Assembly: GCA_963823215.1 (NCBI GenBank)
Contig: CAWGKT010000015.1
Span: 152,013-216,012, forward strand
Source: an uncultured beta proteobacterium
Lineage (GTDB): Bacteria > Pseudomonadota > Gammaproteobacteria > Burkholderiales > Casimicrobiaceae
Direction of reading: 5' to 3'
DNA length: 64,000 bases
The position numbers and the translations under genes were made by a program. Below the pieces are notes generated by a model. That model saw nothing but the letters and a program-made list of their open reading frames with translations. It was not told the DNA's origin and made no database searches. Shown here piece after piece: positions 22,742 to 37,476 of this stretch; within the stretch, counting starts at the first letter, position 1; the number at the start of each line of letters is the position of its first letter.

Positions 22742-23733
22742 TCAGACGCCCGGCGTCAACACGGCGGCACCCGCCACGGCCCCGGCGCGCAACTGCGCGA
22801 GCGCGTCGTTGGCGCGTGCCAGCGGATAGGGCTCGACGTGCACCGACAGGCGGAATCGTCGCCGCGAGCGCGAGAAACGCGTCGCCGTCGCGGCGGGTGA
22901 GGTTGGCGACCGAGCGCACGCAGCGCTCGCCCCAGAGCAGCCGGTAGGGAAACGCCGGGATGTCGCTCATGTGGATGCCGGCGCAGACCACGGTGCCGCC
23001 GCGCGCCGTCGCCGCGAGCGCGGCGGGGATCAAGGCACCGACCGGGGCGAAGATCAGCGCGGCGTCGAGCGGTGCCGGCGCTGTGGCATCGCTGTCGCCG
23101 GCCCAATGCACGCCGACTTTCTGCGCGAACGCCTGCGCGGCGCGATCGCCGGGGCGCGTGAAGGCGAACACGGTGCGCCCCTGCGCGAGCGCGACCTGCG
23201 CGATCAGGTGCGCCGCCGCGCCGAAACCGTAGAGTCCGAGCGTGCGGGCCTCGCCCGCCAGCGCGTAGGCGCGATAGCCGATCAGCCCGGCGCACAGCAG
23301 CGGGGCGGCATGAACATCGTCGTAACGGTCGGGCAGCGGGAAGACGTAGCGGGCGTCGGCGACGGCATAGTCCGCATAGCCGCCGTCGCGCTGATAGCCG
23401 GTGAAGCGTGCGTCGGCGCAGAGGTTCTCGCGTCCCGTCGCGCAATAGCCGCAATGCCCGCAGCTGCCACCCAGCCACGGCACGCCGACCCGGGTGCCAA
23501 TGCCGGGTGCGGTGACGCCGGATCCGCGCGCAGTGATCGTGCCGACGATCTCGTGGCCGGGGATGACGGGGACCTTCGGGTCCGGCAGCTCGCCGTCGAC
23601 GAGATGCAGGTCGGTGCGACAGACGCCGCAGGCGCGCACGGCAATCTGCACCTCGCCCGGGTCCGGGCTCGGGCCGCGGCAGCGTGCGCAGCGCGAGCGG
23701 GCGCCCCGCGCCCTCGCATACCATCGCCTGCAT
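22742..23733 (-). pseudogene. Zinc-dependent alcohol dehydrogenase, two apparent +1 frameshifts (~23656 and ~22850)
   Basis: MQAMVCEGAGRPLALRTLPRPEPGPG / EVQIAVRACGVCRTDLHLVDGE...GHEIVG...CGHCGYC.../ LSVHVEPYPLARANDALAQLRAGAVAGAAVLTPGV lie in three frames. The first shift is an extra G in CCCGGG. Length is 992 nt (3n+2). Confidence 0.75.
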
Positions 23734-23906: not shown

Positions 23907-23934
23907 TTGACGCCGGCATCCGGCCGTCTATAAT
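23907..23934 (+). promoter_or_regulatory. Sigma-70-type promoter of lexA
   Basis: TTGACG (23907-12), a 16 nt spacer, then TATAAT (23929-34), immediately upstream of the palindromic operator. Confidence 0.55.
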
Positions 23935-23939
23935 TTGAT

Positions 23940-23959
23940 TACCGTATATCCATACGGCT
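23940..23959. promoter_or_regulatory. Candidate LexA operator (variant SOS box CCGT-N8-ACGG)
   Basis: TACCGTATATCCATACGGCT lies 5 nt after the -10. It matches the second site at 34293 at 17/20 positions and resembles the E. coli consensus TACTGTATATATATACAGTA. Confidence 0.55.
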
Positions 23960-23968
23960 TTGCAAAGA

Positions 23969-24039
23969 GGGGGCAGGCCACGTTCTTTGTCCCCGATACC
24001 GCTCGCACGAGGCTTTCCGAAAGAACGTGGTCTGTCCCC
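23969..24039. repeat. Palindromic element copy 1 (71 bp) in the lexA 5' leader
   Basis: GGGGGCAGGCCACGTTCTTT GTCCCCGATACCGCTCGCACGAGGCTTTCCG AAAGAACGTGGTCTGTCCCC. It ends 1 nt before the lexA ATG. Confidence 0.85.
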
Positions 24040-24040
24040 T

Positions 24041-24673
24041 ATGTCGATTCCGCTCACCGCCCGGCAGCAGAAGGTCCTCGACTGGATCCGCCGGCACCTG
24101 GAGTCCACGGGCATGCCGCCCACGCGCGCCGAAATCGCTGCGGGCCTGGGCTTCAGCACGGCGAGCTCGGCCGAAGACCACCTGCGCGCGCTCGCCCGAA
24201 AAGGCGCGCTCGAACTCACGCCCGGCGCCTCGCGTGGACTGCGGCTCGCCGAGATGCCGGAGCTGCCCGGCGCGGGCCTGCCGCTGGTGGGGCGCGTGGC
24301 CGCCGGCAGCCCGCTCCTCGCCACCGAGCACATCGAAACGCACGTGCGGCTCGACCCCGCACTGTTCGCGCCGCGCGCCGATTACCTGCTGCGCGTGCGG
24401 GGGCAGAGCATGAAGGACGCCGGCATCCTCGACGGCGATCTCCTCGCCGTGCACCGCACCGCCGATGCCCGCTCGGGGCAGATCGTCGTCGCGCGGCTTG
24501 GCGGACGGGGCGGCGACGAGGTCACGGTGAAGCGCCTGAAGCGCCGCGGCGGGCAGCTCCTGCTCGTCGCCGAAAACCCCGCTTTCGAGCCGATCGTCGT
24601 CGACCCGAAAAAGGCTCCGCTGACCATCGAAGGCGTGGCCGTCGGGCTCGTGCGCGGCGGCAAGGGCTGGTGA
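24041..24673 (+). CDS. lexA: LexA repressor
   Basis: [33 protein letters not shown] wHTH. Ala-Gly cleavage site in VGRVAAGSP, catalytic Ser in [10 protein letters not shown] and Lys in [10 protein letters not shown]. Confidence 0.95.
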
Positions 24674-24677
24674 GATA

Positions 24678-24747
24678 GGGGACAGACCACGTTTTTGTCC
24701 CCGACATCACTTGTGTGAAACTTTCCGAAAAAACGTGGTCTGTCCCC
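24678..24747. repeat. Palindromic element copy 2 (70 bp) between lexA and the GST gene
   Basis: GGGGACAGACCACGTTTTT GTCCCCGACATCACTTGTGTGAAACTTTCCGA AAAAACGTGGTCTGTCCCC, a perfect 19-bp stem. It starts 4 nt after the lexA stop and is followed by AAGGAGG. Confidence 0.9.
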
Positions 24748-24758
24748 AAGGAGGTTCG

Positions 24759-25391
24759 ATGTACACGCTCTACGGCAAGAAAGGCTCGGGCTCGGCATCG
24801 ACGCAAGCCGCGCTGGAAATCGCCGGTGTCCCGTATCGCGTCGTCGAGACCGCGTCATGGGAACCCAACCCCGCATTCGCCGAGCTGTTGCAGGTCAATC
24901 CGCTGGGCCAGATCCCGACCCTCGTGCTGCCCGACGGCAGCGTGCTCTCCGAAAGCGCGGCGATCCTCATCCATCTCGGCAGCGCGCACCCGGACAGCGG
25001 GCTCCTGCCGCGCGACGCCTCGGCGCGGGCGCAGGCGATCCGCGGGCTGGTATTCATCGCGGCGAACTGCTACGCCGCGATCAGCATCATCGATTTTCCC
25101 GAGCGCTGGTGCGAGAACGCCGACGAAGCGACGCAGGAGCGCATCCGCGCCGGGACGCGCGCGCGCCTGCACCGGCACTGGGAAATGTTCGCCGATCTCT
25201 TCCCGGCGCGACCGTACCTCGGCGGGGAGAAGATCGGCGCGCTCGACATCCTCGCCGCCGTCGTGTCCAAATGGTCGGGGTCCCGGCCGCACCTGCAGCA
25301 GGCCCGTCCGGCGTTTTACGAGACCCTGCTGCGCATCGAAGCACAACCGCAAGTCGCACCGGTGTTCGCGCAGCACTGGCCGGCCGGTTGA
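24759..25391 (+). CDS. Glutathione S-transferase family protein
   Basis: MYTLYGKKGSGSASTQAALEIAGVPYRVV...NPLGQIPTLVLPDGSVLSESAAILIHL is a thioredoxin-like GST N-domain. AAGGAGG Shine-Dalgarno. Confidence 0.9.
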   Translation: MYTLYGKKGSGSASTQAALEIAGVPYRVVETASWEPNPAFAELLQVNPLGQIPTLVLPDGSVLSESAAILIHLGSAHPDSGLLPRDASARAQAIRGLVFIAANCYAAISIIDFPERWCENADEATQERIRAGTRARLHRHWEMFADLFPARPYLGGEKIGALDILAAVVSKWSGSRPHLQQARPAFYETLLRIEAQPQVAPVFAQHWPAG

Positions 25392-25485
25392 AGCACCGGC
25401 GCGAGGCGGGATGCCGCGGCATTCGATCGCACCGGCACCACGCCCCGCCCGGCCCACGTCGCACCCCCCTCAAAGGAGGCAATCC

Positions 25486-25947
25486 ATGGCTGTGCAACCG
25501 ATTCCCGAGGGCTACCACTCGGTCACCCCCTATCTCATCCTCGACGACGCCACGCGCGCCCTCGAGTTCTACAAGAAAGCGCTCGGCGCCGTCGAGCTGC
25601 TGCGCATGCCTGCTCCCGGCGGCAAGATCGGCCACGCCGAGATCAGGATCGGCGATTCGCCGATCATGCTCGCCGATGAAAATCCCGAGATGGGCGCGAA
25701 GAGCGCGCGCACCATCGGCGGCTCGCCGATCTCGCTGATGGTCTACGTCGAGGACGTCGACGCGCGCGTCGCGCAGGCCGTTGCCGCTGGTGCCACGCTC
25801 ACGCGGCCGGTCGCGAACCAGTTCTACGGCGACCGCACCGGTGGCGTCGAGGATCCGTTCGGCTATCACTGGTACCTCGCCACTCACGTCGAGGACGTCC
25901 CGCCGGACGAGCTCGAAAAACGCGCGGCCAAGGCGATGGGAGCATAG
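25486..25947 (+). CDS. VOC-family (glyoxalase/bleomycin-resistance/PhnB-like) protein
   Basis: AAAGGAGG Shine-Dalgarno. VTPYLILDDATRALEFYKKALGAVE...GKIGHAEIRIGDSPIMLADE...FYGDRTGGVEDPFGYHWYLATH. Confidence 0.9.
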   Translation: MAVQPIPEGYHSVTPYLILDDATRALEFYKKALGAVELLRMPAPGGKIGHAEIRIGDSPIMLADENPEMGAKSARTIGGSPISLMVYVEDVDARVAQAVAAGATLTRPVANQFYGDRTGGVEDPFGYHWYLATHVEDVPPDELEKRAAKAMGA

Positions 25948-26014
25948 GGGACAGACCACATTTGTCCCTGACATTGCTCCTGCGAAGCTTGCCGAAAGGA
26001 CGTGGTCTGTCCCC
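25947..26014. repeat. Palindromic element copy 3 (68 bp) between the VOC gene and imuA
   Basis: GGGGACAGACCACATTTGTCCCTGACATTGCTCCTGCGAAGCTTGCCGAAAGGACGTGGTCTGTCCCC. Its first G is the last base of the VOC stop codon and its last C directly precedes the imuA ATG. Confidence 0.85.
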
Positions 26015-26731
26015 ATGAACCCTGCCCTCGCCACCGTGCTGTCCAACCCCGCCATCTGGCGTGGCGGCGACTGCGCGCCCGAGCCCGCTGCGCTGCCGTC
26101 GGGCTTTCCCGCGCTCGACGCCGTGCTGCCCGGCCACGGCTGGCCGGGAGCCGCGCTGACCGAGATCGTGCTCGAGCGCGAGGGCATCGGCGAGATCCGC
26201 CTCACACTGCCGGCGCTCGCACGGTTGCAGGCACGGGGCCATGACGTCGTCTGGATCGCGCCGCCTCAGGTGCCGTACGCGCCGGCGCTCGCTGCCGCGG
26301 GGCTCGATCTCGCGCGGTTCCTCGTCGTCCATTGCCGCAGCCCGGCGGATCAGCTGTGGGCCTACGAGCAGGCGCTGCGCGCCCCCGAGTGCGGCGCCGC
26401 GTTCGCGTGGCTCGGCCCGCACGACGACCGCACGATGCGCCGACTCGCGGTCGCCGCGCGCGAAGGCCGCACGTGGGGCGTGCTCTGGCGGCGTCCCGGC
26501 CAGCGCGCGATCGCCGCCACCGCGTCGCTGCGGCTCGCGCTCGCGCCGCAGGAGGGCCGGCTCGCGGTGCGGGTGCTGAAACGTCGCGGGGGCGATCTCG
26601 CGCAGCCGGTGCTCGTCGACGTGGACGCCGGCGGCGGCAACCTGCCACCGCTCCCCGATCCCCGCACGAGCGCGGGCCGTGCGCTTGCGTCACGCACGGC
26701 ACAACCGACGTCGCGAAGCACAGGAAATTGA
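26015..26731 (+). CDS. imuA: ImuA (SulA/RecA-like translesion synthesis protein)
   Basis: MNPALATVLSNPAIWRGGD...LPSGFPALDAVLPGHGWPGAALTEIV...GIGEIRL is typical of ImuA, and it sits in a lexA...imuB...dnaE2 context. Confidence 0.8.
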   Translation: MNPALATVLSNPAIWRGGDCAPEPAALPSGFPALDAVLPGHGWPGAALTEIVLEREGIGEIRLTLPALARLQARGHDVVWIAPPQVPYAPALAAAGLDLARFLVVHCRSPADQLWAYEQALRAPECGAAFAWLGPHDDRTMRRLAVAAREGRTWGVLWRRPGQRAIAATASLRLALAPQEGRLAVRVLKRRGGDLAQPVLVDVDAGGGNLPPLPDPRTSAGRALASRTAQPTSRSTGN

Positions 26732-26795
26732 TTCGATGCCTCCCTCTTCCCTCACCCGCCCGATCCGTCATCGCAGGCGTGCGCCCACTTGTTTG

Positions 26796-26812
26796 AGTCC
26801 CATTTTGGGACT
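26796..26812. promoter_or_regulatory. Perfect 7-3-7 palindrome upstream of higB (candidate TA operator)
   Basis: AGTCCCA-TTT-TGGGACT, 9 nt upstream of the higB ATG and overlapping a TATAGT hexamer. Confidence 0.4.
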
Positions 26813-26820
26813 ATAGTTCG

Positions 26821-27123
26821 ATGCGCATCATTGCGCTTTCGACGTTGCGGGCATTCTGGGCAGCGAACCCGGCCCTTGCGGACGCCCGTGAACCGGTGCT
26901 GGCATGGTACCGCCACGTCGTGGAGGCTGATTGGGCAGCACCTGCTGACGTAAAAGCGGACTTCCGGAGTGCGAGCATTCTCAAGGACGGGCGAGTGGTG
27001 TTCAATATTGCCGGCAACAAATACCGCCTCGTCGTATGGATCAATTATGGCTACCGGGTCGTATACGTCCGATTCATCGGCACCCATGCCCAATACGATC
27101 GGATCGATGCGCAAACCGTTTGA
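26821..27123 (+). CDS. higB: Type II toxin HigB (RelE/ParE superfamily mRNA interferase)
   Basis: MRIIALSTLRAFWAANP...ADFRSASILKDGRVVFNIAGNKYRLVVWINYGYRVVYVRFIGTHAQYDRIDAQTV matches the HigB_toxin family end to end. Confidence 0.85.
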   Translation: MRIIALSTLRAFWAANPALADAREPVLAWYRHVVEADWAAPADVKADFRSASILKDGRVVFNIAGNKYRLVVWINYGYRVVYVRFIGTHAQYDRIDAQTV

Positions 27124-27209
27124 GATGAACAGCCCCCACGCTCACTTCGTTCGCTGCCCCCCGCGGGGGCGCGCAGTGCCCTTCGGGCGGCCGAGCGGGC
27201 ACTGAAGCG

Positions 27210-27584
27210 ATGAACATCAAGCCCATCCGGACCCGAGCCGATCATCGCGCCGCGCTGAAAGCCATCGAAGCATTGATGGGGGCAAAACCGGGTACCTCCG
27301 ACGGCGAACGGCTCGATGTGCTGGTCACACTCGTCGAAGCTTACGAGCGCAAACACTATCCGCTCGACCTCCCCGACCCGGTCGACGCAATCAAGTTCGT
27401 CATGGACCAACGCGGGCTCACGGTCAAGGATCTGGAGCCGATGATCGGCCGTCCCAATCGCGTGTATGAAATTCTCAACCGCACCCGCCCCTTGACGCTG
27501 CCCATGATCCGACGACTGCACGCCCGACTGGGCATCCCCGCCGAATCACTGATCAAGCCTTCCGTCGACCGGAACGCGGCCTGA
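27210..27584 (+). CDS. higA: Antitoxin HigA (XRE-type HTH)
   Basis: MNIKPIRTRADHRAALKAIEALMGAKPGTSDGERLDVLVTLVEAYERKHYPL...LTVKDLEPMIGRPNRVYEILNRTRPLTLPMIRRLHARLGIPAESLI. Confidence 0.85.
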   Translation: MNIKPIRTRADHRAALKAIEALMGAKPGTSDGERLDVLVTLVEAYERKHYPLDLPDPVDAIKFVMDQRGLTVKDLEPMIGRPNRVYEILNRTRPLTLPMIRRLHARLGIPAESLIKPSVDRNAA

Positions 27585-27612
27585 CGTTCCGCCTGCGGGA
27601 TGATCGCGACCG

Positions 27613-29120
27613 ATGCTCTGGACCTGTCTTCTTCTGCCGTCGCTTGCCCCTCGACGTTTTCGCGCGGGCGGCCTCGCCTGCTGAGGCTTTGATGCCGTTC
27701 GCGGTGGGCAGCGGCGGGCGCACGCCGCGCATCGTCAGCGCGAACGCCGCCGCGCGCGCCGCCGGGATCCACCCGGGGCAACTCGTCTCGGCGTCGCTCG
27801 CGCTCGCGCCGGATCTCCTGCTGCGCGACCGCGACCCGGGTGCCGAGTCCGCTGCGCTCGCAGCCGTTGCCACCTGGGCGACCCAATTCACGCCGGCCAT
27901 CGCTCTCGCACCGCCCGATGCCGTGCTCGCGGAGATCGGCGGCAGCCTGCGGCTCTTCGGCGGTCTGCCGCAGTTGACGGCGCGCCTTGCCCGGGGCGTG
28001 CTCGACCTGGGCTATGCCGCGCGCTTCGCGCTCGCGCCCACATCGGCCGCGGCGTTGCTGTTCGCGCGCGCGGAAACGGCGGAGGGAAGCCGGCGCTCCG
28101 GGGAAAGCACGGGTCGGGCTCGATTTTTCCGGGACATCCGCGCTTCTTCCGCTGCCGCTCTCCCTTGCCGAGGCCGATCCCGCCGCCATCGCAACTCTCG
28201 CCGCTGCCGGCATCACGACCTTCGGGCAGGCGTGCGCGTTGCCGCGCGCTGCGCTGGCACGGCGCGTGGGCGAGGATTTCGTCGCCTTTCTCGATCGTGC
28301 GCGCGGCCTCATCCCGGACCTGCGACCGCCGTTCGTGCCACCGCCGCGCTATGCGGGAAAGCTCGATCTGCCGGCGCCGGTGACAAGCGTCGATGCGCTC
28401 GCGTTCGCGGTGAACCGGCTCGTGCTCGAGTTGGCGGGATGGCTCACGGGCCGCGGCCTCGGCGTGACCGAAATGTCGCTCGCGCTCGCGCACGAGCGTC
28501 ACGTCCGGGTCGCGACCGGCGTGCCCGCCACCACCGTCGGCTTCGCGCTCGCCGTGCCGGCGCGCGAGCCCGCGCATCTTGTCGCCGTGCTGCGCGAGCG
28601 GCTCGCGCGCATCGTGCTGCCGGCGCCGGTCGAGGCGATCACGCTCGCGAGCGAGGCGACCGCCCCTCTGGCCAGCCGCAACCTCGGACTGCTCCCCGGG
28701 GACGAGGCAGCCGCGACCATTCCGCTGCTCGACCGCCTGCGCGCACGGCTGGGCGAAGGCGCGGTGATGCTCGTCGCGCCGCACGCCGAGCACCGGCCCG
28801 AGCGCGCGTGGCGCGACGGGAAAATCGGGGACAGACCACGTTTTCCAGGAACAACGGAAGCCGCGAGCAAAACGTGCTCTGTCCCCCGCCCCGTCTGGCT
28901 GCTCGCCGAGCCGGAACCGCTCGGCCATCGGCTCGAAGCCCAACCGTGGGTGCTGCGCGACGGGCCGGAGCGGATCGAGTCGGGATGGTGGGACGGCGCC
29001 GACGTGCGCCGCGATTACTTCGTCGCCGAGAACCCGCGCGGCGAGACGGTGTGGATCTATCGCGATCACCGCTACGGGATCGATGACGGCGAATGGTTCC
29101 TGCACGGCGTATTCGGGTAA
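27613..29120 (+). pseudogene. imuB: ImuB (Y-family polymerase-like), two apparent frameshifts plus an in-frame 60-nt element insertion
   Basis: ATG 27613 gives MLWTCLLLPSL. The frame shifts at ~27645 to PLDVFARA...GIHPGQ...LAPTSAAALLFARAE, and again at ~28090-28150 to LPLPLSLAEADPAAIATLAAAGITTFGQACALPRAALARRVGEDF...RPVWLLAEPEPL. Length is 1508 nt (3n+2). Confidence 0.8.
28827..28886. repeat. Palindromic element copy 4 (60 bp) inside the imuB coding sequence
   Basis: GGGGACAGACCACGTTTT CCAGGAACAACGGAAGCCGCGAGC AAAACGTGCTCTGTCCCC. It starts on a codon boundary and encodes GDRPRFPGTTEAASKTCSVP (20 codons, no stop). Confidence 0.9.
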
Positions 29121-29131
29121 TGACAACAGGC

Positions 29132-29908
29132 TCAGATCCCGGCGAACCACTGATACCCCTGGTCCTCCCAGTAGCCGCCCTTGCCGCCCGCGATCCTGGC
29201 GAAGCTGTCGACCAGTTCGATCGCATCACGTACTTCGCGTGCTTGTAGCCCAGCTGCCGCTCGACGCGCAAACGAATCGGCGCCCCGTTGGCGATCGGCA
29301 GCACGGCGTCGTTCATCTCGTAGGCAAGGATCGTCTGCGGATGGAACGCATCCTCGAGATCGATGCTTTCGTAGTAGAGGCTGGTGCCGTCCGTCCTCCA
29401 TCGGATCGGCGCAGTGGAACACGACGAACCGCGCTTCAGGCGTCGGGCCGCACCGCCTCGAGCAGCGCGGCGAGCCGCGCGCCCTTCCACTTCGCGATGG
29501 CGCTCCAGCCTTCGACGCAATCGTGCCGCGTGATCTGCGTGCGGCTCGGCAGCGCGCGAAGGTCCGCCAGCGAAAGGCTCGCCGGCTGCGCGACCAGGCC
29601 GCCGACTTCGAGCCGGTACGTCGGCAAAGCCGTTCGCGGCGAGCATCCGGTACGCATCGCTGTCCGGCTCGGCGGTTCCATTGCTGCGAAAGCTCGGCGA
29701 GCGATCGGCGTCGGTGAACTCCTGCGCCATCGACTTGCGCGAGGTGACGGCGTGCGCCACCGCGCGAGCTGAGCTTCTCGCCGGCGCCGAGGACCTTCGG
29801 AAACCAGTCGCTGTTGGACAGCCGCTCGCAGCCGGCGACCAGCAGCGCTCCCGCCGCGCCGATCACGCGGGAGAGAAAGCGCCGCCGTGCGTCATGCGTC
29901 GTGTTCAT
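29132..29908 (-). pseudogene. Molybdopterin-dependent oxidoreductase (sulfite-oxidase fold, MsrP/YedY-like), about 5 frame changes
   Basis: A Tat signal RRRFLSRVIGAAGALLVAGC, then family segments spread over three frames: FRSNGTAEP / YRLEVGGLVAQPASLSLADLRALPSRTQITRHDCVEGWSAIAKWKG / ARFVVFHCAD / LYYESIDLEDAFHPQTILAYEMNDAVLPIANGAPIRLRVERQLGYKHAKYV / IELVDSF...GGYWEDQGYQWFAGI. Confidence 0.7.
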
Positions 29909-30757
29909 GGCCTGCCTCCGTCCGAATGCGATACCGGCCCGTGATCATCGAGCGCAGATGGTTCCAGAAGCCCGACACGATCACTTCGAACACGTGGATC
30001 AGCACGAACGCGACGAGCAGCCAGGCCGACGACGAAATGCATCGTCCGCGCCGCCTGCCGGCCGCCGAAGAGATCGACCCAGCCCGGCAGAACGCGAATC
30101 CATCCACGGCGACATCGCGACGCCCATCAGGATGATGAGCGGCAGCAGACAGGAAGATGACCGTGAGATACGCGATCTTCTGCAGCACGTTGTAGCGCCT
30201 GGCCGCCTCGCCGGTCGGATGGCGGAAGCGCAGGTGATCCCGGATCGACGCTGCCGATCGAGCGCCAGTCGCTCCGGTCCGGAGCGAGGTCGCGCGCGAG
30301 ATGCCGGCTCGCCGTCGAATAGGCGACGTAGGCCAGGCCGTTGATCAGCAGCACCCAGGCGAAGAAGAAGTGCCACGAACGCGCCATCGACAGCCACGGG
30401 TTGTTCGGAATCGTCGATCCACCACGGAAAGGCCCGCGCCGCAGGCTGGCCATCGGCAGTCTTCGACACGCCGAGCACGCCTGTCGTGACGAATTCGCGA
30501 CCGAAGACGCGCGTGGTGCCGACCGCCCCGGCTTCGCCGCTTTGCCGGGCGCCGATTTCCAGCACCGGCGGCGCGCCCGTGTACGACGACTTGCCCGCCC
30601 AGTACAGGCGCGGGTGCGCATTGAAGATCTGCAAGCCGCTCATCAGCAGGATCGTCAGCGCGACCACATTCGTCCAGTGCATCAGGCGCACGGGCAGCGA
30701 GTGGCGAAAGTACAGGTAATCCCGCGGACCCGCGCGGCCGGCGTCGGCGTGCGGCAT
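29892..30757 (-). pseudogene. Cytochrome b561-type membrane partner (PF01292-like), about 5 frame changes
   Basis: Segments RHSLPVRLMHWTNVVALTILLMSGLQIFNAHPRLYW / WLSMARSWHFFFAWVLLINGLAYV / IRDHLRFRHPTGEAARRYNVLQKIAYLTVIFL / LLPLIILMGVAMSPWMDS / VDLFGGRQAARTMHF / WLLVAFVLIHVFEVIVSGFWNHLRSMITG alternate between the three frames. Confidence 0.65.
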
Positions 30758-30908
30758 GGCCTGCTCTCCGATCAGGTGATGGCGTTGGTCGCGCATCGCG
30801 GCCCCGCCTTACAGCGACAGCCTGCTCAGGAACGCCGCGATCCCGACGACGATAGTGTAGTCGCGACCCAGACGGTTCGCGTCGGCGTTGTTGATGGCGC
30901 GGCCCGCC

Positions 30909-32437
30909 TCAGGGCGCAAATTCGAATGCCGCGGTGAGGTCGCCGGCGTCGGCACGCACGCCGGGCAGCGGCTCGAGCCCGAAGCGGCGGGTGATGAATT
31001 TGATGATCGACGTCGTGTCGTAGCTCGTGTGGTCGACGTGGCCACGCTTCGCGAACGGGGACACGATGATCGCCGGAATGCGCGTGCCCGGGCCCCAGCG
31101 ATCGCCCTTGGGCGGCGCGACATGGTCCCAGAAGCCGCCGTTCTCGTCATAGGTGACGATGACCGCCGACTTCGACCACAGCGGGCTCGCCCTGATCTTC
31201 GCGATCAGCGCCGCTATGTGCGTGTCGCCGGAGAGCACGTCGGTGTAGCTCGGGTGCTCGTTCAGGGAGCCCTGCGGCTTGTAGAACGCGACCTGCGGCA
31301 AGTCGCCCCGATCGATGCCCGCGACGAGGTCGGCGTAGTCCTTGAGGTGCCGTTCGCGATCCGCGGTTCCCGGCGCGAAACGCGCGAAGTAGTTGAACGG
31401 ATGGTGGTGCGGCTGGAAGTTGATCGAGCCGGGTTCCCGGTTGTTGATGACCGTGCGCTTCGCGTCGGGCGGCTGCATCGCGTCGGCGAGCGCCGCGTTC
31501 CATCCGCCCGCGTACCACGCCCACGATATCCCCTTGGCCGAGAGCGTGTCGCCGATGGTCTTCGTCGTCTGCGGCGGCAGCGTGTACTTCGACGGATCGC
31601 GCGAGCGCAGGTCGCCACCCGGCGCCGGCGGCACGGCCGAGGGCTGATACGGCGCGCTAACCCGAGTTGACGACGTAGCCATCGGGCGTGACGCTGCCGT
31701 CGAACAGCAGCAGATTGCCGTCGCGCGCGGAGGCGGGCGAGCCCGGACGGCGCTTCAGCCAGCCGCGCTCGTCGACCTGCGCGCGCAGGCTGGCCGGCGC
31801 GTGCTTCGTCGCGCGGCGTGCAGGCGCAGATCAGCCACTGGTGATTGATGAAGGAATCGCCGTGGGCCGCCATGAAGAAGTTGTCGGCGAGCACGAAGTC
31901 GCGCGCCCATTGCCACATCGGCAGCTTCGAGCCGTCGTAGTACGCCATCACGAAGCCGCCGGCGTCGGACATCGCGGCGAAGCGATCGTTGCGCCCGCCG
32001 TTGATCTGCTCGATGTTCTGGTAGTACCGGTGGACCGCGCCGCGCACGCGCTGCGACAGCGGCAGGTCGAACGGCGGCGCGTCGAGGCGGAACGGCCGGT
32101 TCGGCAAGCGGTGGGGAAACGCCGGGTCGGGGTCCTTGCCCCGCCATGCGGGCGGCAGCTCGGCGAGCGGCGTGCCGTCGCGGTCGACCTGCGTGTACTG
32201 GGCCGGGGTTGCCTGGGCAATGCCGTTCGCGCCGGGGAACAGTCCGTAGAGATGGTCGAAGCTGCGGTTCTCGGCGTAGATGACGATGATGTGCTCGATG
32301 CTCGCGAGCCGCCCCTTCGGTCCCGGTGTCTGCGCCGCGCCACCGGTGGCCGCGAGTGCGGCCGCCGCGACGACCAGCAGGCGCGCGGCCAATCGCCGAA
32401 GGATCCAGGACGACGTCCCTGCACTCGCCTGCGCCAA
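30909..32437 (-). pseudogene. Phosphoesterase-family protein (AcpA acid phosphatase / phospholipase C type), about 2 frameshifts
   Basis: IVIYAENRSFDHLYG...FINHQWLICACTP, then a shift (~31790) to VDERGWLKRRPGSPASARDGNLLLFDGSVTPDGYVVN, then a shift (~31675) to APYQPS...FNYFARF...AVIVTYDENGGFWDHVAPP...GPGTRIPAIIVSPFAKRGHVDH. Confidence 0.7.
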
Positions 32438-32470
32438 AGATCGTCGCCACGGTCGCTCCCGGTGTGACGA

Positions 32471-34157
32471 TCAGTCCAGCGTCACCACGGCCCGCACGGT
32501 TCCTGCCCGCTCGTGCCGCGCGACGAGGTCGATCCGATCGCCCTGCCGTCCCCGCACGACCCATTCGATCTTCGCGCGATCGTCGGTCACGTTGTAGTCG
32601 GGCCAGAACGACACGCCGGTGTGCTTCGACCACTTGCCTTCGAGCTGGCCCAGGTCCTCGCGCCGCTTGCCGTGGACGAGTTCCGCCCCCGCCGGCAGCG
32701 CGATCTCGGCGATGACCCCGCGCACGACCTTGCGCTCCAGCGCCCGCTTCGACACGTAGCTCGGCAGCCAGCCGGTGTTCTGGACGACGAGGCGCACCCG
32801 CCAATGGTCGTCGCCCAGCACGTCAGCTTCGGCGGCGACGAGCTCCATCTTGGGCGAGGTCAGCGCCTGCCACAGCAGCCACTTCGGGAAGCGGGCCAGC
32901 TCTTGCTCGAGAAAGGCCGGCGGCGGATTGCCGAACGCGTGAAAGCGGTTCCAGCCGCCGATTTCGATGCGTCCGAGCTGCGGGTGATCGAACGATCGCC
33001 ACGCAATGTGGGCGACACCGGCGAGCTTGTCGACGTTCCACCGGTAGACCTTGAGGTCGTCCTCGATCGGGTGGTCGCGGAACCAGTCGATGTACTTGTA
33101 GTTCGTGATGCCGGCTTCCCGCATCGGGCTCCAGATCTCGACCACCCAGCTGAACATGCCGAGGTGCTCGTAGATCCAGTCGAACGCGCCGCCGATCACA
33201 TCCTTCGGGTGGTAGCGGAATTCCTCGTAGACGGAGATCGCCGGATAGCCGGTTAGTTCGGTGCCCTTGGCGCCCACCCGACGGTAGTGCCAGAGGTCCT
33301 CGGCGTGCATCTCGTCGTCGGAGAGATGGTCGAACGGACGCAGCAGCACGCCGCTCCACGTGTGGAAGGCAACGCCCCCGGTGATGTTCGGATGGTCGAC
33401 GACGAACTGCGCGACCGCACGCACTTCCGGTTCCGACGTGGGATACGGTCCGCTTCCGAGCTGCTCGAACTCCTGGCGCCAGTTTGCAGGAAAATTTCTA
33501 TTTAGATCAAGCCCCTGCTTATTCTTCTTCACGCGCAACGTGAAGCCATCCCAACCCTCCACCGTGCCCTCGGGAAGGATCCGGTAGTAGTTGCCGCCGG
33601 TTTCCACGGGATCGCGACGGACCATCAGCCCCGGTTGCTCGGGGTGGTCCTTCCAGAGCCCGTTGGGGTCGGGGATGCGCATCTGCAGGATCCGGCCGTC
33701 GCCATCGATGTCCTCGACGGTGAGCCCGTCGATCTCCTCTTCGTCCCACGGATACGGACGGGTGCTCGAGCGGACCCATTTCGGCCTGTCGGCGAGCGCC
33801 CATTCGGCGCCGTCCGGGTTGATCCGCGGACAGACGTAGAACGCCCGGGTGTCGAGGGCCCGGGTCACGTCGGGATCCTTGCCGTATTGCGTGACCAGCG
33901 TCTGCAGGAAATAGAGATTGGCCGCCGATGCCGCGACTTCGGTCGCGTGGATGTTGCCGTCCACCCAGAACGCCGGTTTCTCTGCCGCCGGTCCCGTGTT
34001 CACGTTGGTGACGGTCAGCACCCAGATGTCGCGGCCCTCGTGGCTCTTGCCGATCGATTCGATCGACACGAGGCTGCGGATGCTCGGCGGCGAATGCCTG
34101 GAGGATCGCGGTGAGCTCGGCGTAGCGGTAGAAGCGGTCGAAGGCGATGGTCGGCAT
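32471..34157 (-). pseudogene. M14-family zinc carboxypeptidase, one apparent frameshift near the N-terminus (~34075)
   Basis: MPTIAFDRFYRYAELTAILQAFAAEHP, then a shift to LVSIESIGKSHEGRDIWVLTV...VDGNIHATEV (HxxE)...DLNRNFP...GGVAFHTWSG. Length is 1687 nt (3n+1). Confidence 0.75.
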
Positions 34158-34292
34158 GGTATGGCTTTCCCGTTCTGGGCAGGGCACGAAGGCCGCGACG
34201 CTGGCAGAGCCGGCATCTTACCGGCCTTCGCCGAACGACGGCCGGCGGGCACGGAAACCCTCCCCCGCCGCCTCTTCCCCGGCATGGCCATA

Positions 34293-34312
34293 TACCGTAT
34301 ATTCATACGGTG
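34293..34312. promoter_or_regulatory. Second candidate LexA operator, overlapping the dnaE2 start codon
   Basis: TACCGTATATTCATACGGTG. Its last three bases are the GTG start of dnaE2. Confidence 0.55.
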
Positions 34313-37300
34313 CTTCCCGACTACGCCGAACTGCACTGCCTGTCGAATTTCTCGTTCCTCCGCGGCGCGTCGCACCCGGAGGAACTGGTCGAGCGCGCGA
34401 GTGCGCAGGGCTACGCGGCGCTGGCGATCACCGACGAGTGCTCGTTCTCGGGCATCGTTCGCGCGCATCTCGCGGCGAAGCACGCGGGCCTTCCGCTGGT
34501 CATCGGCAGCGAGGTCGCGATCAATGACGGAGTGAAGCTCGTGCTGCTCGCCACCGACCGCGCGAGCTACGGCAACCTCGCGCAACTGATCACGCGCGGG
34601 CGGCGCAACGCGGTGAAGGGCAGCTACGCGCTGTCGCGCGACGACGTCGCGACGTTCGCGGACGGGCTCCTCGCGCTGTGGGTGCCGCCGGAACTGTCAG
34701 CAAAAGGGGCGCTCTGGGTCGCCGCGACCTTTCCGGGTCGCGCGTGGATTGCCGTCGAGCTCTTCGCCCACGCCGGCGACCGCGCCCGGCTTGCGCACTG
34801 CGCGGCGCTGGCGCGGCAGACAGGCCTGCCGCAGGTCGCCGCCGGCGACGTTCACATGCACGTGCGCGCCCGGCGCGCGCTGCAGGACACGGTCACGGCG
34901 ATCCGCGTGAAAAAGCCGCTCGCCGAATGCGGCTACGCGCTTCATCCCAATGGCGAGCGGCACCTGCGTTCGCGCGCGCGGCTTGCGACGATCTATCCGC
35001 CCGAGCTGCTCGCCGAGACCATCACGATTGCGCAGCGCTGCGCGTTCTCGCTCGACGAATTGCGTTACGAGTACCCGGAGGAGATCGTGCCGGAGGGGCA
35101 AACACCGGCATCGCATCTGCGTGCGCTGGTCGAAGCGGGATTGGCGAGGCGGTATCGGGGACAGACCACGTTTTCCGCGGAACTGACCGTGGCTTTGGGC
35201 GGAGGCGTAGTGGAAAACGTGGTCTGTCCCCGATTTCCGATCTGCCCCCCGATGTCCGCGCACTGGTCGAGCACGAGCTCGCGCTGATCGCGGAATTGAA
35301 GTACGAACCGTATTTTCTCACCGTCCACGACATCGTCGCCTTCGCCCGCGCGCAGGGCATCCTCTGCCAGGGCCGCGGCTCCGCGGCCAACTCGGCAGTC
35401 TGCTACGCGCTCGGGATCACCGAGGTCGATCCGGCGCGGATGAGCATGCTGTTCGAGCGCTTCATCTCGAAGGAGCGCAACGAGCCGCCGGACATCGACG
35501 TCGACTTCGAGCACCAGCGGCGCGAGGAAGTCATCCAGTACATCTACGCGAAATACGGCCGCGACCGCGCGGCGCTCGCCGCGACGCTCATCACCTACCG
35601 GCCGAAGAGCGCCGTGCGCGATGTCGGCCGGGCGCTGGGTCTCGACCTCGCGCAGATCGATCGGCTTGCCGGCATGTTCGCCTGGTGGGACGGCCGCGAG
35701 GTCAGGCCCGAGCGTGTCCGCGAGGCGGGGTTCGAGCCCGACAACCCGGTGTTCGTCCGCCTCGTCACGCTGACGGGCGAGCTGATGGGCTTCCCGCGCC
35801 ACCTGTCGCAGCACGTCGGCGGCTTCGTCATCGCGCGCGATCTGCTCGAGCGGATGGTCCCGATCGAGAACGCGGCGATGGCGGAGCGCACCGTCCTCCA
35901 GTGGGACAAGGATGACCTCGACGCGCTGGGCCTGCTCAAGGTCGATTGCCTCGCGCTCGGCATGCTGTCGGCGATCAGGCGCTGCCTCGACATGGTGTCG
36001 CGGAAAATGGCGGCAAACTCCAATTGCGAACGCGATTGGGGTCTGACCCCATTTTCCATGCAGGACATTCCGGCCGAAGACCCGGAGGTCTACGCGATGT
36101 GCCAGCGCGCCGACACCGTCGGCGTGTTCCAGATCGAGTCGCGCGCGCAGCAGGCGATGCTGCCGCGATTGAAGCCCGCGTGCTTCTACGATCTCGTGAT
36201 CGAGGTCGCCATCGTGCGCCCCGGCCCGATCCAGGGCGGGATGGTGCACCCGTACCTGCGCCGCCGGCAGGGCCTCGAACCCGTCACCTATCCCAGCGCC
36301 GCGGTGCAGAGCGTGCTCGCGCGCACGCTCGGCGTGCCGATCTTCCAGGAGCAGGTGATGCAGCTCGCGATCGTCGCGGCGGGCTTTACGCCGGGCGACG
36401 CGGACCACCTGCGGCGCTCGATGGCCGCCTGGCGGCGCAAGGGCGGCCTCGAGAAGTTCGAGCAGCGGCTGATCGACGGCATGGGCGCGCGCGGCTACGC
36501 CGAGGCGTTCGCGCGGCAGATCTACCAGCAGATCCTGGGCTTCGGCGAGTACGGCTTTCCGGAATCGCACTCGGCTTCCTTCGCCCTGCTCGTCTACGTG
36601 TCGGCGTGGCTGAAGCGCTACGAGCCCGCGGCGTTCTGCGGCGCGCTGCTCAACTCGCTGCCGATGGGCTTCTACGGGCCTTCGCAGCTGGTGCAGGATG
36701 CGCGCCGGCATGGCGTCGAGGTGCACCCCGCGGACGTGACGGTGAGCGAATGGGACTGCACGTTGGAGCACCCGGGGTTGCGCCTCGGTCTTCGCCTCGT
36801 CTCCGGACTCGCAGAGGCTGCTGCGCAAAGGATCGTCGACGCGCGGCGGACAGAGCCGTTCGCGAGTGTGGCCGATCTCGCGTACCGCGCGCGGCTCGAC
36901 CGCCGCGACCTCGCCTGTCTTGCCGAGGCCGACGCGCTGACAGCACTCGCCGGCCATCGGCACGGCGCGGCGTGGGAGGTCGCCGGGATCGAGCGGCTGC
37001 CGGCATTGCTCGCCGGCAGCGTTTTCGACGAAGCGGATCCCGCCTTGCCGCCGCCGACCGAAGGACAGGACATCGTCGCCGACTACCGCACCCTGTCGCT
37101 CACGTTGCGGCGACACCCGCTGGCCCTCTTGCGCGGCAGGCTGCAACGGCGGCGGCTCGCCACGGCGGCCGAGATCGGTGAGGCGCCGCAGGGCCGGATC
37201 GTCCGCACGGCCGGGATCGTCATCGGCCGGCAGCGGCCCGACACCGCAAGTGGCGTGGTCTTTGTCACGCTCGAAGACGAAACCGGCGCCACCAACGTGA

Positions 37301-37476
37301 TCGTCTGGCGCGACGTCGGCGACCGCCAGCGTCGCGAACTGCTCGGTGCAAAGCTGCTCGCGGTCTTCGGCAAGGTGGAGCGCGTGGGGCAGGTCGTCCA
37401 CCTGATCGCCGGGCGGCTCGCGGATCTCTCCCCGCTGCTGGGTGATTTGCAGACCCGCTCGCGAGATTTTCACTGA
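34310..37476 (+). pseudogene. dnaE2: Error-prone DNA polymerase DnaE2 (ImuC), split into two frames at the inserted palindromic element
   Basis: (M)[26 protein letters not shown] N-terminus (PHP domain). The frame changes between 35157 and ~35240; the second frame continues [33 protein letters not shown]...[10 protein letters not shown]...to 37476. Length is 3167 nt (3n+2). Confidence 0.85.
35157..35231. repeat. Palindromic element copy 5 (75 bp) inside dnaE2
   Basis: GGGGACAGACCACGTTTTCC GCGGAACTGACCGTGGCTTTGGGCGGAGGCGTAGT GGAAAACGTGGTCTGTCCCC, a perfect 20-bp stem. The flanks ATC/GAT extend the palindrome. It is open in both relevant frames. Confidence 0.9.

Follow-up and report, generated by a model that had tools for sequence, protein, structure and literature searches.

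Palindromic terminal-repeat dimers of the TIRYT type cluster in the SOS mutagenesis genes of a Casimicrobiaceae lineage

The DNA analysed here is a stretch of 64 kb (the window) from contig CAWGKT010000015.1, positions 152,013 to 216,012, of an uncultured beta proteobacterium of the Casimicrobiaceae (assembly GCA_963823215.1). It carries the SOS mutagenesis genes lexA, imuA, imuB and dnaE2 and, in and between them, five copies of a palindromic element made of two inverted arms, whose nature and origin are the subject of this work. An earlier reading of the letters (the original prediction) spoke of a lexA-imuA-imuB-dnaE2 locus; these genes are all present, but they do not form a plain operon (Table 1). 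In fact, genes for a GST, a VOC/glyoxalase protein, HigB and HigA are interspersed, and imuB and dnaE2 are separated by about 5 kb that hold unrelated genes (MFS, phosphoesterase, M14 peptidase), most of them on the minus strand. The lexA promoter is the only strong sigma-70-like promoter in 14 kb. It is followed by a palindrome of the form CCGTAT-N4-ATACGG, and a second one abuts the dnaE2 start; these are the only two perfect matches to that pattern in the window, and the one on the lexA side is conserved in two related contigs, L133 and L135. Because they resemble CTGT-N8-ACAG, stand where they do and are conserved in relatives, both palindromes are probably LexA boxes, and probably of a lineage-specific kind (CCGT...ACGG versus CTGT...ACAG). 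Two such boxes would thus delimit two SOS transcription units in the window, and all the elements lie inside them.

We searched the window with the arm query GGGGACAGACCACGTTTT, allowing up to three mismatches and using 100 shuffles as control. Ten arm matches were found, forming five convergent pairs at the positions originally predicted (0.08 expected; none of the 100 shuffles reached ten). All ten arms start with GGGG(A/G)CAG and, in each copy, the two inverted units and their short spacer fold into one long hairpin. The stems are more varied than had been thought. Perfect stems of 19-20 bp were claimed for copies 2 and 5: this is right for copy 2 (19 nucleotides (nt), 100% complementary), but the stem of copy 5 is longer (23 nt, 100%). 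Copy 4 has, as predicted, one mismatch in an 18-nt stem. In copy 1, said to carry one indel plus one mismatch, we find no indel but a 21-nt stem, 90% complementary, with two mismatches, each due to an A-to-G change in the left arm that gives a G.U pair in the sense RNA. Copy 3 pairs perfectly over only about 13 nt. The division into two subtypes holds, copies 1-3 having a common internal block and copies 4 and 5 unrelated loops. As RNA, the five copies fold with -28 to -60 kcal/mol (z-scores -3.9 to -9.2): -40.8 kcal/mol for copy 1 (z -5.4), -40.1 for copy 2, -36 for copy 3 and -59.9 for copy 5 (z -9.2).

We call this family TIR-A, for reasons of identity given below. No further TIR-A copy is present in the other ~53 kb of the window, whether an 11-mer core or the generic motif GGGG[AT][CG]A[CG] is used, so the claim that the window holds no other copy stands for this family. 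What had been overlooked are a sixth palindrome in dnaE2, belonging to another family that starts with GGGGWSAS, and a decayed single arm of a third family, TIR-B, in imuB. The decayed arm reads GGGTCAG(A/G)CTCGA(C/T)TTTT and coincides with a +1 indel of the window imuB; a better-preserved counterpart lies at the same place in L133, at ~10390.

Table 1. Genes, signals and palindromic elements of the locus, with the state of each insertion site in related contigs (window positions unless a contig is named)
Feature	Coordinates	Strand	Arm pair	Placement and basis	State of site
lexA promoter TTGACG-16-TATAAT (23907-23934), then LexA-box-like palindrome CCGTATATCCATACGG (23942-23957)	23907..23957	+
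Copy 1, TIR-A dimer, lexA 5' leader	23968..24040		23969-24039	ends 1 nt before lexA ATG (24041); arm search, stem, fold	site 1: window filled; L133 other sequence with normal GGAGG; L134-L137 filled
lexA, 210 aa	24041..24673	+		Pfam LexA_DNA_bind, Peptidase_S24
Copy 2, TIR-A dimer, lexA-GST junction	24678..24747		24678-24747	between lexA stop (24673) and GST start (24759); arm search, stem, fold	site 2: window, L133, L137 filled; L134 degenerate remnant
GST gene	24759-25391	+		Pfam
VOC/glyoxalase gene	25486-25947	+		Pfam
Copy 3, TIR-A dimer, VOC-imuA junction	25947..26014		25947-26014	covers last base of VOC TAG stop, imuA ATG (26015) immediately after; arm search, fold	site 3: window, L134, L137 filled; L133 filled, decayed
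imuA, 238 aa, SulA/RecA-like	26015..26731	+		translation, Pfam
higB + higA toxin-antitoxin pair	26821-27584 (region 26690-27604)			between imuA and imuB; translation, Pfam
imuB	27617..29120	+		translation, Pfam; read in three frames
Decayed single arm, TIR-B family (GGGTCGGGCTCGATTTTT)	28111..28128	+		imuB N-terminal half; encodes ...RVGLDFSG...
Copy 4, TIR-A dimer with GGAAAATC flank	28819..28886	+	28827-28886	in imuB; arm search, ortholog comparison	site 4 (imuB linker): window, L133, L134 filled
LexA-box-like palindrome CCGTATATTCATACGG, second and perfect	34295..34310	+		abuts dnaE2 GTG start
dnaE2, error-prone Pol III alpha	34310..37476	+		GTG start 34310; translation, Pfam
Copy 5, TIR-A dimer (23-nt arms + GATTTCC flank)	35154..35241	+	35157-35231	in dnaE2 after ...ARRY; arm search, empty-site comparison	site 5 (after RRY): window filled; L133 filled, diverged loop; L134 empty, 11 nt in place of 86
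Sixth palindrome, other GGGGWSAS family (GGAAAATGGGGTCAGACCCC)	36002..36057	+		in dnaE2; inverted-repeat scan, gap in blast map
Other-family sites in relatives	L133 16698-16766, ~18799; L134 18483-18567, 16009-16094, 6434-6509; L138 11247-11322, 20180-20253, 20716-20809

The arms of these palindromes are by no means private to the locus. A scan of one genome per species with the pattern GGGGACAGACCACGTTYT found the TIR-A arm (gaAAATnGGGGACAGACCACGTTTT, a repeat of ~25 nt) in at least 120 stretches of diverse Proteobacteria, with Gamma-, Beta- and Desulfobacterota-type genomes among them, which bears out the remark that such families are normally dispersed. Among the matches listed are Pseudomonas, Accumulibacter, Noviherbaspirillum, Thiogranum, Desulfobulbaceae, Desulfobacterium, Parabeggiatoa and others, and one complete genome may hold several loci (at least four in CP070646.1, at least three in OZ242169.1). 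In at least eight loci, L035, L121, L022, L032, L052, L026 and L129 included, a plus arm, a gene with NHVH and YIELNP motifs and a minus arm follow one another with gaps of 26-136 bp, the gene standing in either orientation. For example, a Y1 gene of 232 aa in L035 is enclosed by two plus units on its left and three minus units on its right. Its product matches Pfam Y1_Tnp (5.7e-14), reaches 76.8 bits against NCBIfam REP_Tyr_transpos (cut-off 80) and gives a weak end-to-end match to the E. coli TnpArep structure 4er8 (E = 0.026). Among the matches listed, homologs of this transposase occur in 23 of 120 loci, the conserved unit over 273 arms, and the consensus of 264 units, is ggaAAATaGGGGACAGACCACGTTTT, close neighbour arms make 55 convergent, 34 direct and no divergent pairs, and the spacer between paired arms runs from 1 to 75 nt. 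The repeat is met as singles, as convergent dimers whose loops are unrelated between genomes, and as direct arrays. Eight open reading frames span TIR-A dimers in other genomes, but nearly all are spurious high-GC frames; elsewhere, therefore, the dimers are essentially intergenic.

This is the picture described for TIRtrons, in which RAYT-like TIRYT genes lie between terminal inverted repeats (TIRs) that carry GGGGWSAS and also occur as singles, dimers and clusters (PMC3733652). The TIRYT enzymes are Y1/HUH single-strand-DNA transposases, related to the REP-associated RAYTs. The motifs NHVH, WE and YIELNP are those of TnpAY1 subclass 2.1, equated with TIRYT by Quentin et al. 2018, and TIRYT transposases are present in about 15% of strains (PMC6006769). 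Because the motif, the flanking of TIRYT genes elsewhere and the occurrence as singles, dimers and clusters are all found for TIR-A, the five copies are, as judged from sequence, TIR dimers of the TIRYT class without a transposase, functionally like REPINs (doublets of repetitive extragenic palindromic (REP) sequences) or miniature inverted-repeat transposable elements (MITEs). The early label "REPIN/MITE-like" was thus right in kind, the arms being TIRs of TIRYT-type Y1 units, but the copies are neither canonical REPs nor classical MITEs. The suggestion to look for a cognate transposase led to a TIRYT gene between the same arms in at least eight other genomes, but to none in the window.

Three other identities were considered and rejected. 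A canonical REP is not at hand: the unit GGGGACAGACCACGTTTT lacks both a GTAG/GTGG head and self-complementarity. A classical MITE does not fit either, given that filled and empty dnaE2 sites (86 vs 11 nt; 54 vs 21 nt) show no target-site duplication; host bases are replaced there, not duplicated. Direct arrays could suggest the multi-site ends of a Tn7/Mu/Tn5053-like transposon, but the flanked gene encodes a Y1 transposase.

Several observations on the family stand by themselves. In L063 (562-894) and L013 (3464-3578), TIR-A units form direct tandem arrays, 4-8 units long and with 11-52 nt between units, and the array of L063 lies immediately upstream of the start of a TIRYT gene (MPRRARLVL). 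Across loci L013-L132, the 18-mer is identical between classes, whereas the flanked transposases are 41-69% identical; this conservation of the repeat is far stronger than in REP/RAYT pairs, which diverge together. In viral contigs, a 15-mer scan gave 12 matches, mostly single and uninformative. A literature search for the sequence itself met no paper that quotes the 18-mer arm, only chance primer matches.

To follow the history of the insertions, we compared the window with contigs that carry ImuB orthologs (L133, L134, L138 and L139) and with short metagenome contigs recovered by a loop-specific metagenome scan (L135-L137). The relatives' assemblies are ENA ERZ25039461, ERZ25039503, ERZ25039603 and ERZ25039554, and ImuB homologs point to metagenome-assembled genomes (MAGs) of Betaproteobacteria/Casimicrobiaceae type. 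Gene order is common to the window, L133, L134 and L138 through to dnaE2; L139 has no dnaE2 in its 21 kb, nor any such hairpin in that length. There are exceptions: higBA is specific to the window (neither L133 nor L134 has it), L135 lacks GST-VOC and a DinB-family gene (PF05163) stands between imuA and imuB in L139. Site occupancy varies among assemblies that are 92-96% identical, that is 4-8% diverged. Orthologous loci without the insertions, proposed as a check, were indeed found, with site 5 empty in L134, site 1 free of the element in L133 and a remnant at site 2 of L134. At site 2 of L138 (7817-7867), an unrelated hairpin with 20-nt arms (GTCGGGTTATGTTATCAAGC / GCTTGATAACCTAACCCCAC) takes the place of the TIR-A dimer.

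Orthologs of the window copies occur in five related assemblies. Across genomes, copies 1-3 are 85-100% identical within a site versus 77-90% between sites; this grouping by site marks them as old paralogs with vertical inheritance. GST-VOC (24748-25946) is flanked by copies 2 and 3 as direct repeats, and in L135 (3100-3260) a single copy-2-like element joins lexA directly to imuA, replacing GST-VOC. This suggests that the gene pair may have been deleted or inserted by recombination between element copies.

Inside genes, the insertions are read, or probably read, in frame. Copy 4 (60 nt) is in frame and encodes GDRPRFPGTTEAASKTCSVP in a hypervariable linker of ImuB, between PERAW and RPVWLL; the insert is also present in ten close ImuB orthologs (P0001-P0010). 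Copy 5 makes dnaE2 75 nt longer than the empty allele of L134, at a position that reads R(Y/F/W)-P-x-G-(V/I)P in almost all DnaE2 proteins. It is probably an in-frame insertion too, the window frame breaking in the adjacent C-run (35243-35250, CTGCCCCCCGAT), just after the element; L134 is in frame there, with TGC CCC ACC GAC. The sixth element is specific to the window, where 54 nt stand for 21 nt of L133/L134, in frame, with a net gain of 33 nt and 18 residues in place of QRGRELR.

Frame breaks in the window call for care. Compared with an intact ortholog of 501 aa, imuB has two +1 indels (27644 and 28110). Each indel mapped in imuB and dnaE2 involves one base, and two lie in short base runs. 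Because many other genes of the window are frameshifted relative to relatives (four frames in the phosphoesterase gene at 30923-32332, three in the ADH gene at 22745-23733 and two in the M14 gene at 32477-34157, next to the three of imuB), the breaks in imuB and dnaE2 are probable assembly indels of an indel-prone, long-read MAG-type assembly, and we do not call these genes pseudogenes. A pseudogene reading of the two, with dnaE2 disrupted by copy 5, was rejected: the dnaE2 frame changes in the C-run after the element, the filled allele exceeds the empty one by 75 nt and frameshifts are widespread in the window.

The same genes have been colonised by more than one family. In the relatives' imuB and dnaE2, three further GGGGWSAS families occupy the same and additional sites, with differences of presence and absence (Table 1). 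The TIR-B unit, (GTA)GGGTCAGACTCGACTTTT, is found in the ImuB linker, both in L138 and in many orthologs (the 'RLDFS...KVESDP' inserts), and at ~nt 385 of dnaE2 in L133, L134 and L138, where the window has no insertion. The TIR-C unit, GGGGTCAGATACGAATCTT, fills the RRY site of the L138 dnaE2, and the reading frame continues through it (33 aa). A fourth unit type, TIR-D, is AAATGGGGTCAGACCCC, and a hybrid unit is found at ~nt 2460 of dnaE2 in L133. In this clade, dnaE2 has thus received insertions at no fewer than four sites. L134 also has TIR-B dimers outside the SOS units, one just upstream of the lexA promoter and one at the phosphoesterase/M14 junction.

Clustering of these elements in the SOS mutagenesis genes of this lineage is real and recurrent. 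All five window copies fall within the SOS units, which make up 13% of the window (p = 3.8e-5, for events that are not fully independent), and with the relatives included 9 of 11 sites do so (binomial p = 5e-7, counting sites, not copies, again for events that are not fully independent). The prediction that the family marks exactly the SOS genes was thus well founded in the window, where both LexA-box units are tagged, and the pattern recurs in relatives; the association is nevertheless strong rather than exclusive, because the two L134 dimers lie just outside the SOS units. A general association of the family with SOS genes was rejected: lexA, imuA, imuB and dnaE2 occur in none of the 120 loci among the matches listed, and recN in one. 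That one is a group of TIR-A units directly upstream of recN in a Halioglobus MAG (L038, 3231-3306), the only SOS-type neighbour among those 120. REPs of unrelated families have been reported in dnaE2, uvrA, uvrB, uvrD and other repair genes, which in many species are the sole REP-tagged coding sequences (PMC3733652); examples of tagged DnaE2 proteins are Oter_4053 and Swit_1119 (Additional file 3 of the same paper).

To explain these results we propose that the copies are non-autonomous TIR dimers of TIRYT elements that spread locally and were kept by bias or tolerance, rather than purpose-built regulators, a reading to which we give a probability of roughly 65%. The dimers would have been generated or moved by a TIRYT enzyme that works in trans on single-stranded DNA, much as RAYT is proposed to do for REP/REPIN, and would then have spread locally by duplication and recombination. 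Copies in imuB and dnaE2 would persist since they are in frame in permissive linkers. Their pile-up in the LexA-controlled imuA-imuB-dnaE2 cassette would reflect insertion bias, tolerance of dispensable damage-inducible genes, or both, and the bias may be the same unexplained one that is reported for REPs in DnaE2 and other repair genes.

A number of points weigh against this proposal. A TIRYT gene is missing from the 64-kb window as well as from ~90 kb of related loci. The pattern specific to the loop of copies 1-3 matched three metagenome contigs and no others, each an orthologous lexA/imuA cassette; as this loop subfamily was met only in orthologous SOS cassettes, it gives no direct sign of movement outside the locus. 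That copies 1 and 3 directly adjoin start codons, in relatives too, could be a sign of co-option rather than neutrality. Both the copy 5 loop and the sixth element's left arm bear a partial likeness to the ancestral host sequence, which hints at templated growth of a palindrome or at two separate arm insertions, either of which would fit better than the arrival of a ready-made dimer. To our knowledge, activity of TIRYT on TIRs has never been demonstrated experimentally. The TIRtron paper itself presents TIRYT action on TIRs without experimental demonstration (PMC3733652).

A first alternative is that the locus is targeted mechanistically: Y1/HUH transposition requires single-stranded DNA and is active when DNA is damaged, so that single strands exposed at just that time in strongly induced LexA-regulated genes, or DNA processed by the mutasome, would be favoured targets of TIR/REP units of several families. 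Single-stranded DNA is indeed the substrate of IS608 and ISDra2, and irradiation induces the latter. At least four GGGGWSAS families have arrived independently at four dnaE2 and two imuB sites in relatives 92-96% identical, 9 of 11 sites lie in SOS units, a TIR-A cluster stands directly upstream of recN in the Halioglobus MAG, and REPs are found in dnaE2, uvrA, uvrB, uvrD and other repair genes (PMC3733652). Such targeting is possible, if on the unlikely side. Elsewhere, cassette genes neighbour none of the 120 listed loci and recN only one, two related hairpins of L134 sit outside the SOS units, and tolerance of a dispensable cassette with flexible linkers explains retention equally well.

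As for what the hairpins do, the explanation proposed above allows for side effects. In the three intergenic copies, 0-11 nt separate the hairpin from a start codon and 0-4 nt from the stop codon before it. The lexA stop precedes copy 2 by 4 nt, and an AAGGAGG ribosome-binding site directly follows its stem, before the GST start. Copies 1 and 3 leave no Shine-Dalgarno sequence between stem and ATG (of lexA and imuA), where L133, which has no copy 1, has GGAGG. In E. coli, REP/BIME sequences stabilise mRNA in operons. Stop-codon-proximal REPs of the same species are said, by Liang, Rudd and Deutscher in 2015, to lower translation. Because they are placed against start and stop codons, the three intergenic hairpins probably modulate translation or mRNA stability of the operon; such effects would be by-products of insertion.

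A second alternative goes further, with the TIR dimers co-opted as structures, in RNA or in DNA, that adjust the SOS mutagenesis operon. They may act by translational coupling or occlusion at the lexA, GST and imuA starts, by protection from 3' exonucleases, by RNase III processing or by stalling ribosomes near stop codons. The very stable folds (z -3.9 to -9.2) argue for it, as do the positions of copies 1-3 against start and stop codons, which are conserved in relatives, the Shine-Dalgarno sequences missing downstream of copies 1 and 3, the G.U-compatible mismatches of copy 1, one compensatory C-G pair in the stems and the confinement of the elements to the two LexA-box units of the window. 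We nevertheless find co-option unlikely. Selection on RNA structure was rejected, since covariation in the stems is no higher than in shuffles (95.0% of cells paired vs 94.7%). Occupancy varies between close relatives, whose sites may hold other families or none: L139 has no hairpins, and the arms at sites 3 and 5 of L133 have decayed. The same elements also occur elsewhere in unrelated contexts. No relevant Rfam family matches at E <= 1 in the region 23-36 kb, where only noise is seen (a plant miRNA model scores 29.9 bits, its cut-off being 137 bits). None of the five copies is followed by a T-run, and intrinsic terminators were rejected on this ground; terminator-like features are seen only in the sixth-element core and the decayed arm at 28110. 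The dedicated function that the original prediction had suggested (RNA structure, processing or binding) thus finds no covariation, Rfam family or T-run to stand on. Bolder still, and doubtful, is the idea that palindromes mobilised by Y1/HUH enzymes were drawn to imuB and dnaE2, for instance because these genes and transposition alike depend on single-stranded DNA that damage induces, and that their hairpins and peptide inserts are now built-in modulators of SOS mutagenesis. A family of selfish elements would then be functionally tied to the inducible mutation machinery.

The same early reading had offered co-transfer: the cassette would have come from an element-rich donor, the copies being passengers that mark foreign DNA. 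Cassettes of imuA-imuB-dnaE2 are known to be patchily distributed. The present one is a mosaic, with higBA in the window only, no GST-VOC in L135 and a dinB-like gene in L139, and GC content is slightly higher at 22-46 kb than in the flanks. This rise, however, starts before lexA and runs ~9 kb past dnaE2, so that a foreign island, which should show a cassette-shaped GC anomaly, was rejected. Flanking genes are syntenic in L133, L134 and L138, none of the window copies lies in the ~5 kb that separate imuB from dnaE2, and the insertions differ between close relatives and therefore arose within the lineage. Co-transfer is thus very unlikely. Least credible of all are operator sites, inverted 18-mers bound by a host transcription factor for SOS mutagenesis genes: the architecture is palindromic and copies 1-3 lie at gene starts, but two copies are deep inside open reading frames, across the family the spacer may be anything from 1 to 75 nt, transposase genes of unrelated bacteria are flanked by the same sequence, which also forms direct arrays there, and the candidate LexA box is a different, separate palindrome.

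Several features make the locus worth attention. Palindromic repeats that tag DnaE2 are already known, in unrelated REP families (PMC3733652). New are the widely conserved TIR family, the tagging of a second protein, ImuB, the presence of a hairpin at each junction between cistrons of the lexA operon, and multiple families with filled and empty alleles among close relatives. With at least 11 insertion sites and four related families in or beside one LexA-controlled cassette, the locus is a compact natural experiment. REP-type palindromes inside DNA-repair genes have been unexplained since 2013, and the locus makes their case tractable. If only tolerance of a dispensable cassette is at work, this is ordinary, though dense, accumulation of selfish DNA.

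Small palindromic mobile elements of other bacteria offer several comparisons. Rickettsia palindromic elements (RPEs) insert in frame inside genes and Correia elements are co-transcribed and alter the fate of mRNA. Neither is related to TIR-A in sequence: RPEs are 100-150 bp long and have no known transposase, and Correia elements have a TA duplication with IHF and promoter features. E. coli REP/BIME sequences resemble the copies in being stable intercistronic hairpins near stop codons and differ in sequence family. The REPIN-RAYT system is closer (PMC3116915, PMC2817692), as it too makes a long hairpin from two inverted short repeats, is non-autonomous and associated with an IS200-like Y1 transposase, leaves no target-site duplication and is inherited vertically at orthologous sites. 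The unit described here, however, lacks the GT[AG]G head and is no palindrome by itself, most loops are unrelated and the associated protein falls just under the NCBI RAYT cut-off (76.8 vs 80 bits).

TIRtrons are the nearest match. The arm start GGGGACAG fits GGGGWSAS (PMC3733652), a Y1 gene of about 230 aa with NHVH, WE and YIELNP is flanked in inverted orientation in other genomes, singles, dimers and clusters all occur, and the single unit is itself no hairpin. The difference is that the window has no TIRYT gene and that the copies are concentrated in one LexA-controlled cassette, with in-frame intragenic copies such as were described for GTAG/CGTC REPs and not for TIRs. The latter feature recalls the REP-tagged DnaE2 proteins (PMC3733652), in which in-frame palindromic dimers add 20-30 aa and repair genes are sometimes the only tagged open reading frames. 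In our lineage, by contrast, the tags are TIRs of TIRYT type, ImuB is tagged as well, every junction of the lexA operon is occupied, and several families compete for the same sites in close relatives.

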